Of a stretch of DNA of 57,517 nucleotides, positions 17,190 to 17,430 are shown one piece after another. The stretch is taken from IMG/VR virus record IMGVR_UViG_3300029305_001878, positions 128,001 to 185,517 of that record. One strand, 5' to 3'. Source of the DNA: a virus (taxonomy: Duplodnaviria > Heunggongvirae > Uroviricota > Caudoviricetes). Under the pieces are notes generated by a model. It was given only the letters and a program-made list of their open reading frames with translations. It was not told where the DNA came from and did no database searches. A program made the position numbers and the translations under genes. Each line of letters opens with the position of its first letter. The first letter of the stretch is position 1.

Positions 17190-17282
17190 ATGTTTGATGA
17201 TTTTATGATTCAGATTCAGTCCGATGAAATCGCTTCTATGATTAATTGGGAGGAGATTTTTGATGAAGAAACAGAAATTTGA
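17190..17282 (+). CDS. small acidic peptide (30 aa)
   Basis: AAGGA RBS after a promoter; MFDDFMIQIQSDEIASMINWEEIFDEETEI. Confidence 0.5.
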   Translation: MFDDFMIQIQSDEIASMINWEEIFDEETEI

Positions 17283-17430
17283 TAAACGTATTTTGAAAAA
17301 GAGTCCAGAAGAATTGGAAGCCTATCTTCAATTCCAAAGACGAGGTTCTGTAGTAGAGAATAAGAAAGGTAAAGGTTCTTATAAACGAAAACCCAAGCAC
17401 GCAAATCAGCAATATGATAGGTGTGCTTAA
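17263..17430 (+). CDS. ArfA-like alternative ribosome-rescue factor (55 aa)
   Basis: [33 protein letters not shown] resembles the ArfA core [21 protein letters not shown]. Confidence 0.65.
   Translation: [55 protein letters not shown]

Follow-up and report, generated by a model that had tools for sequence, protein, structure and literature searches.

Introduction

A few narrow bacterial families (ArfA, ArfT and BrfA) are known to carry out release-factor-dependent ribosome rescue, and we know of no such system described for Clostridia. ArfA (YhdL; PF03889; PDB 5MDV, 5U4I, 5H5U and 5MGP) belongs to the gamma- and beta-proteobacteria. Its residues 31-48 fill the mRNA channel, residues 25-29 contribute a strand to RF2, and the Trp of the RF2 switch loop is gripped by L19, L24 and F25 (PMC5378476). 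ArfA-type release occurs only at mRNA 3' ends (PMC4245945), the activity dropping sharply once more than 3 nt extend past the P site (PMC8012679), and bacterial arfA gives a non-stop message, the full-length product bearing a degradation tail (PMC3989581). In BrfA (YqkK) of Bacillus subtilis (PDB 6SZS), ArfA's job is done by F31 and two unrelated N-terminal helices, which contact h44, H69 and H71; Lys-His alone is shared (PMC6881298). Such factors show species specificity (PMC6881298). ArfA-type factors have been reported only from gamma- and beta-proteobacteria and from 10 Bacillus species (PMC11633108).

Phage ArfA genes are already known, as annotations and from one paper. Pelagiphage HTVC027P gp30 (PMC12753301) and peptides of Pseudoalteromonas phage J2-1, Citromicrobium phage RXM and Brevundimonas phage Bambus are phage-borne PF03889 peptides presumed to be rescue factors. 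All these annotated phage ArfAs come from phages of proteobacteria, and for several of them the alignment with E. coli ArfA spans most of the latter. Our literature search found no paper on the gut-phage family described here and no functional test of a phage ArfA-like peptide.

Results

A 55-residue ORF inside a phage tRNA array

The window, that is the whole stretch of DNA analysed (57,517 nucleotides), forms the last part of a virus record of 185,517 bases. Within a tRNA array, the ArfA-like gene extends from position 17263 to 17430 (+) and encodes a basic peptide of 55 aa (17 K/R versus 6 D/E, net charge +11); it ends with TAA and contains no in-frame TAG. Translation confirmed the basic ORF and the motif reported in the initial annotation, and the E. 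coli ArfA motif quoted there proved correct against arfA of MG1655. The chance expectation of an exact NKKGKGSY in the six frames of this genome is 2e-5. Homologues of the ORF are numerous (71 close ones; 314 clusters at 50% identity), it is called as a gene in other assemblies as well, and comparison with close relatives indicates purifying selection (dN/dS 0.09-0.20).

A sigma-A-type promoter with an extended -10 (TTGATT-17-TG-TATAAT), recognized by consensus match only, is located at 17128-17156 (+); the genome contains about 40 copies of it, most of them ahead of TAG-poor metabolic genes and tRNAs. It is followed by a 30-aa acidic ORF of the MFDDF..QIQSDE family (17190-17282, +), which runs 20 nt into the ArfA-like gene, the second in order. 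The ribosome-binding site of the latter, GGAGGAG (17249-17255, +), stands 7 nt 5' of the ATG and falls within the acidic ORF. The acidic peptides form an unnamed family (MFDDF..QIQ.[DE]E, 28-43 aa) and, within the tRNA arrays of such phages, usually come first behind a promoter. The family had no match in PHROG, and a viral scan for the acidic peptide confirmed nothing. We considered the acidic peptide as an obligate partner of the ArfA-like one and rejected the idea: 19 of 94 distinct loci have it upstream of the ArfA-like gene, three phages have it at another place in the genome, and it occurs without the ArfA-like gene in three more, which makes it a frequent neighbour only.

On the other side, tRNA-Glu (17436-17512, +) starts 5 nt after the ArfA-like stop, an arrangement from which we infer processing. 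In 19 of the family's 94 distinct loci the stop is no more than 8 nt from a tRNA, in 5 the frame enters the tRNA, and in 42 there is no tRNA nearby; for comparison, 20% of the other ORFs ahead of tRNAs likewise stop within 8 nt. In at least six relatives the frame enters a tRNA (His, Gly, Pro or Glu) before any stop, including L539, which has the same tRNA-Glu cassette as the present gene and no stop ahead of the tRNA. Such a non-stop layout is typical of rescue factors. TAG is the terminal codon of 10 of the 94 members. Members with this ending from TAG-recoded phages include those of L045, L046 and L054 (near 10135), and in L054 the terminal TAG is inside a terminator-like stem followed by a run of T. 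RNA runs gave small shares only. Contigs of relatives from four studies span parts of the promoter-ORF-tRNA stretch, although such contigs cannot show transcription or transcript ends.

Several other features were observed in the neighbourhood. A Twister-P1-like ribozyme (18421-18501, +; E 4e-8, 41.6 bits, below the gathering score of 67) has an extra hairpin inserted and ends 5 nt ahead of a tRNA-Ser. Two tRNA-like genes were missed by ARAGORN, at 16337-16402 (+) and 17815-17886 (+), the latter reading as a Met/Ile2-type tRNA with a CAU anticodon. A radical SAM maturase gene (TIGR04115; 19245-22026, +) has an in-frame TAG near its start and is flanked by Cys-repeat proteins.

The tail matches ArfA and the front half does not

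The initial annotation had proposed an ArfA-family HMM search as a check. Pfam PF03889 matched the peptide above its gathering cut-off (29.9 bits versus 25.5, E 3.8e-7), over residues 29-47 and profile positions 26-44 only. Of the 27 carriers among 50 genomes only 4 passed this cut-off; at E <=0.01 PF03889 was matched by 49 of 50 aligned members, and no other family was matched more than once. The significant PDB matches were all E. coli ArfA, over approximately residues 26-50 (E 4e-5). The segment concerned (residues 29-47; 17347-17403, +) is homologous to the mRNA-channel tail of ArfA and contains Y40-x-R42 as well as Lys-His. A profile comparison with ArfA gave a probability of 93% and paired F24 of the phage peptide with Phe25 by means of a two-residue insertion ahead of the tail. 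The F, YxR and KH elements follow one another in ArfA's order and near its spacing. The motif is also conserved among homologues: 190 of 249 distinct members retain [KR]G[KR]G[SA][YF]xR, 243 have [YF]xR and 106 have Lys-His, the GKGS loop being deleted in 23. In ESM Atlas, the family fell into unnamed clusters only, one of them with 10% PF03889, and its nearest PHROG is the unnamed phrog_37108.

The front half (residues 7-28; 17281-17346, +) is predicted to be helical and is family-specific, with the consensus DKRxFKKxxEELQQYLxFxRRG. It is the most conserved part of the family (K12 98%, E17 97%, L18 97%, F24 99%). The AlphaFold2 model places helices at residues 9-12 and 15-27, with a pLDDT of about 80 there; the strand corresponding to ArfA 25-30 is absent from this free, unbound model. 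The conservation peak coincides with the aromatic residue that contacts the switch-loop Trp of RF2 (F25 in ArfA, F31 in BrfA; PMC5378476, PMC6881298). No counterpart of ArfA's N-terminal minidomain (I11, A18, L19, P23, L24) was detectable, hhalign of the N-terminal halves giving a probability of 0.3%. A complex prediction using the family alignment with a clostridial RF2 scored 0.00, which counts neither for nor against an interaction.

The end of the protein differs from that of ArfA too. After YxR the phage peptides have 5-16 residues (median 10) with a hydrophobic share of 0.2, compared with 31 residues and 0.5 in E. coli ArfA, and the hydrophobic C-terminal degradation tail of ArfA was not found in the family. 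Altogether, the peptide shares with ArfA the basic tail, the size of the active truncated form (41-58 aa in the family) and a stem-loop where the reading frame ends, and it has an aromatic residue that aligns with Phe25 across the insertion. It differs in residues 1-28, which are unrelated, in the two-residue insertion after F24, and in having its own stop, a distribution limited, in the data searched, to phage-like DNA and a probable clostridial host. With homology confined to the tail, the tests support likeness to ArfA for the sensor half, and the presumed activator half is new. The initial description of the peptide as ArfA-like thus holds for the channel-binding segment and fails for the RF2-activating minidomain. 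Because both the minidomain and the degradation tail were looked for and not detected, we do not file the family as a member of ArfA.

BrfA resembles the phage peptide in its Gram-positive setting, its N-terminal helices (modelled ones in the phage peptide), the Phe ahead of the basic tail and Lys-His. However, no sequence or profile match to BrfA was found at E <=10, with 6SZS among the entries searched, and a terminator inside the gene truncates BrfA before its stop, whereas none was called in the phage ORF.

A conserved hairpin closes on the stop codon

An RNA hairpin occupies 17395-17428 (+), in which AAGCACGC (17395-17402) pairs with GTGTGCTT (17421-17428) around a short inner stem. The 8-bp structure (-15.3 kcal/mol) spans the last 11 codons and closes on the first base (U) of the stop codon. 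In 13 relatives ending in Cys-Ala, the outer seven pairs are unbroken, with G-U substitutions, and compensating changes occur at the eighth pair; the inner part of the stem is poorly conserved. Pairing reached 84%, compared with 22-38% in slid controls, and the covariation score was equalled by 1 of 500 shuffles. A DNA pattern scan for the hairpin gave matches mostly by chance.

Synonymous sites in the hairpin are frozen. The Cys-Ala codons are TGT-GCT in 13 of 13 hairpin relatives, and in the hairpin members Lys45 is AAG in 12 of 12 and His46 is CAC in 11 of 12, as against 9 of 20 for each codon in the other Lys-His members. Of 98 Lys-His proteins, 21 end in Cys-Ala, and no member without Lys-His does so; therefore the protein ending reflects the RNA stem. 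Four further relatives located ahead of tRNAs have different stems at the same place. A terminal stem was found in 10 of 19 ArfA-like genes <=30 nt from a tRNA, in 1 of 53 other ORFs in such a position and in 6 of 58 ArfA-like genes elsewhere, counts that are inflated by shared descent.

No terminator was called in the ArfA-like ORF or at the hairpin, and there is no U-tract 3' of it. After cleavage by RNase P, the message would end in the stem and a 4-8 nt tail holding the stop. In the simplest reading, the hairpin probably shields the message's 3' end after this cleavage. That a conserved hairpin closes on a stop lying 5 nt ahead of tRNA-Glu is new here.

Distribution and probable host

The family was found in phage-like DNA only, mostly in gut and rumen phages of 100-200 kb. 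IMG/VR contained 66 loci, mostly on records of 50-200 kb, and the portal family of this phage is common to 39 of the 49 records carrying the gene. We found no match to the family in 50,697 GenBank phage records, no chromosomal copy in 301 Acutalibacteraceae genomes (family profile) and no chromosomal ArfA-type gene in 301 Lachnospiraceae genomes (PF03889). Bacterial chromosomal copies were considered and rejected: the 32 GTDB matches, among those listed, are all on phage-looking MAG contigs, often several per bin, which bear phage genes, promoter repeats or tRNA arrays, two contigs being the least clear.

As to the host, a dockerin was over cut-off in this genome, contigs of relatives were binned mostly with Clostridia, and the RF2 proteins of two carriers are nearer to B. 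subtilis RF2 than to E. coli RF2. From these indirect indications a clostridial host is probable, in line with the Bacillota host suggested initially.

Rescue and termination genes in related phages

We then looked at other translation-related genes. No release factor, SmpB or tmRNA gene was found in this genome. Of 70 records, 9 had a phage-encoded tmRNA scoring above the Rfam cut-off. An apparent mutual exclusion with the ArfA-like gene (first 0/27 versus 6/23, p 0.006) weakened once four carriers showed tmRNA, giving 4 of 47 carriers versus 6 of 23 non-carriers (p 0.07), two of the four having been chosen because ARAGORN flagged them. tmRNA and the ArfA-like gene occur together in one clade; the two are not mutually exclusive, and the presence of tmRNA in these records fits selection on ribosome rescue. 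Two of the 49 carriers encode a release factor, in each case an RF2 with SPF. These phage RF2 genes (SPF, GGQ), at L076:1420-2502 (-) and L075:1420-2502 (-), lack the usual frameshift. In G001, an RF2 gene shares the strand of the ArfA-like gene and lies some 7 kb upstream of it, and two recoded relatives without the ArfA-like gene (L540, L541) have release-factor genes. In L002, two tRNA calls have a UCA anticodon and one a CUA anticodon. As this phage group carries tmRNA and release factors, termination and rescue are functions in which it invests. No link to the ArfA-like gene was found for Ro60 (12/17 versus 19/23, p 0.46) or for tRNA number. The counter-defence role mentioned in the initial annotation is possible.

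Relation to TAG recoding

That this phage recodes TAG, as first proposed, is borne out: nine structural genes contain 141 in-frame TAG codons, versus 1 in thirteen metabolic genes, and a CUA-anticodon tRNA is encoded at 48451-48525 (+), a context for TAG read-through. Structural-block genes without in-frame TAG were observed at L073:2983-4122 and L072:17005-18120 (-), with 3-52 in their neighbours.

The gene had also been proposed to rescue ribosomes on amber-rich mRNAs. Such a recoding helper would free ribosomes at or after amber codons while RF1 is weakened in the code switch, routing them to RF2. In its favour, when records were picked by portal similarity alone and their code was called from in-frame TAG within the portal gene, the ArfA-like gene was present in 14 of 31 recoded relatives and in 3 of 28 unrecoded ones (raw p 0.004), and the members ending in TAG mentioned above would suit it. 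However, the p value was 0.11 when the comparison was limited to records >=90% complete. On the portal tree the two traits change several times (6 and 8), and the independent pairs, too few for power, showed no trend. Moreover, the portal gene has TAG in 25 of 39 carriers and is TAG-free in the other 14, 17 recoded portal-selected relatives have no match to the ArfA-like gene, and the present gene neither contains TAG nor ends with it. ArfA works only when the channel is almost empty, so a message that is still intact would offer it no substrate at an amber codon; UAG there is read by the host RF1. The excess of the gene in recoded relatives is explained by a clade effect, although a small real effect of recoding may exist. 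The link to recoding thus did not survive, and we hold a recoding helper to be improbable. The family being common in phages that read TAG either way, a general rescue function is probable rather than a recoding tool.

Discussion

With a confidence somewhat above even, we propose that the peptide is a phage-only alternative rescue factor, made without the tmRNA fail-safe, which brings a release factor of the host, probably RF2, to non-stop ribosomes. The proposal starts from a conserved gene, present under both codes and restricted to phages in the data searched, with tail homology to ArfA, a distinct conserved helix and the hairpin. By analogy, the peptide most likely works like ArfA or BrfA, with RF2 as the most likely partner. 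From its sigma-A-type promoter, the gene would be transcribed early by the host RNA polymerase along with the downstream tRNAs. RNase P would cleave 5 nt past the stop, and the terminal hairpin would guard the new 3' end. As the protected message would retain its stop, full-length peptide would be made free of the tmRNA fail-safe that limits bacterial ArfA. The tail would bind the empty mRNA channel, and the helix with the invariant F24 and L18/Y21 would sit at the decoding centre and activate the host release factor. The ribosome would be freed without ssrA tagging, keeping ribosomes available during infection, and this function would be general and independent of TAG recoding. Several points run against a rescue factor: judged from the sequence, the minidomain has no counterpart, two residues are inserted, Lys-His is found in fewer than half of the members and the GKGS loop has been lost in some; in addition, release factors exist in two phages without the gene, and tmRNA stands alongside it in one clade.

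An alternative is a peptide that occupies the ribosome and does nothing more, the tail filling the empty mRNA channel while the helix opens no release factor, in competition with SmpB-tmRNA or parking vacant ribosomes. The restriction of ArfA homology to the binding half and the lower frequency of tmRNA in carriers suit such a channel blocker, and binding is separable from activation, since ArfA(A18T) does bind and recruit RF2 yet fails to activate it (PMC8012679). If the peptide competed with SmpB-tmRNA, phage proteins would be tagged less. But a blocker made throughout early infection would presumably trap ribosomes that a lytic phage needs, four carriers encode a tmRNA of their own, and the invariant F24 and the non-stop layouts of relatives suit an activator under tmRNA control; we therefore find this explanation unlikely. 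Still less probable, indeed very improbable, is a basic nucleic-acid-binding peptide that does not act on ribosomes and whose likeness to ArfA is convergent. The match does cover only 19 lysine/glycine-rich residues, with a loop that some members have deleted. Against convergence stand the nearly uniform PF03889 matches of the aligned members, the ArfA-like order and spacing of F, YxR and KH, the placement among tRNAs and the non-stop layouts.

The other alternative concerns control of the gene and is compatible with a rescue factor. As for arfA, the hairpin could be a site for RNase III or another nuclease, or trimming could remove the stop, and the peptide would accumulate only on tmRNA overload. 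The E. coli arfA message becomes non-stop when its 3' stem-loop is cleaved (PMC3989581), after RNase P cleavage 8 nt would remain beyond the P site at stop decoding, a distance at which trans-translation still works (PMC8012679), and L539 has no stop ahead of the same tRNA-Glu. The conserved stem is nevertheless only 8 bp long with a poorly kept inner part, there is no U-tract or called terminator at the hairpin, and the hydrophobic degradation tail is absent. An 8-bp stem is short for RNase III. Stops close to tRNAs are also shared by a fifth of the other pre-tRNA ORFs, and in most members the stop is a plain one, with another gene coming next; non-stop control of this message therefore seems doubtful to us. 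We are equally hesitant about a bolder version of the preferred rescue-factor reading, a distinct phage-only class with an ArfA tail on an unrelated helix, acting on clostridial ribosomes, for which no back-up factor is known, at a level set by tRNA processing. RNase P would leave a hairpin-capped message extending 5-10 nt past the P site, so that tmRNA and release factors would compete at its own stop, and the level of the peptide would then report the rescue capacity of the host.

Interest in the family is tempered by the phage ArfA genes already annotated and by the tie to the genetic code, which does not hold. Nevertheless, a widespread phage family that combines an ArfA tail with a new front half tests in how many ways a peptide of 50 residues can switch on a release factor, and it also offers a test of whether phages bypass ssrA tagging.
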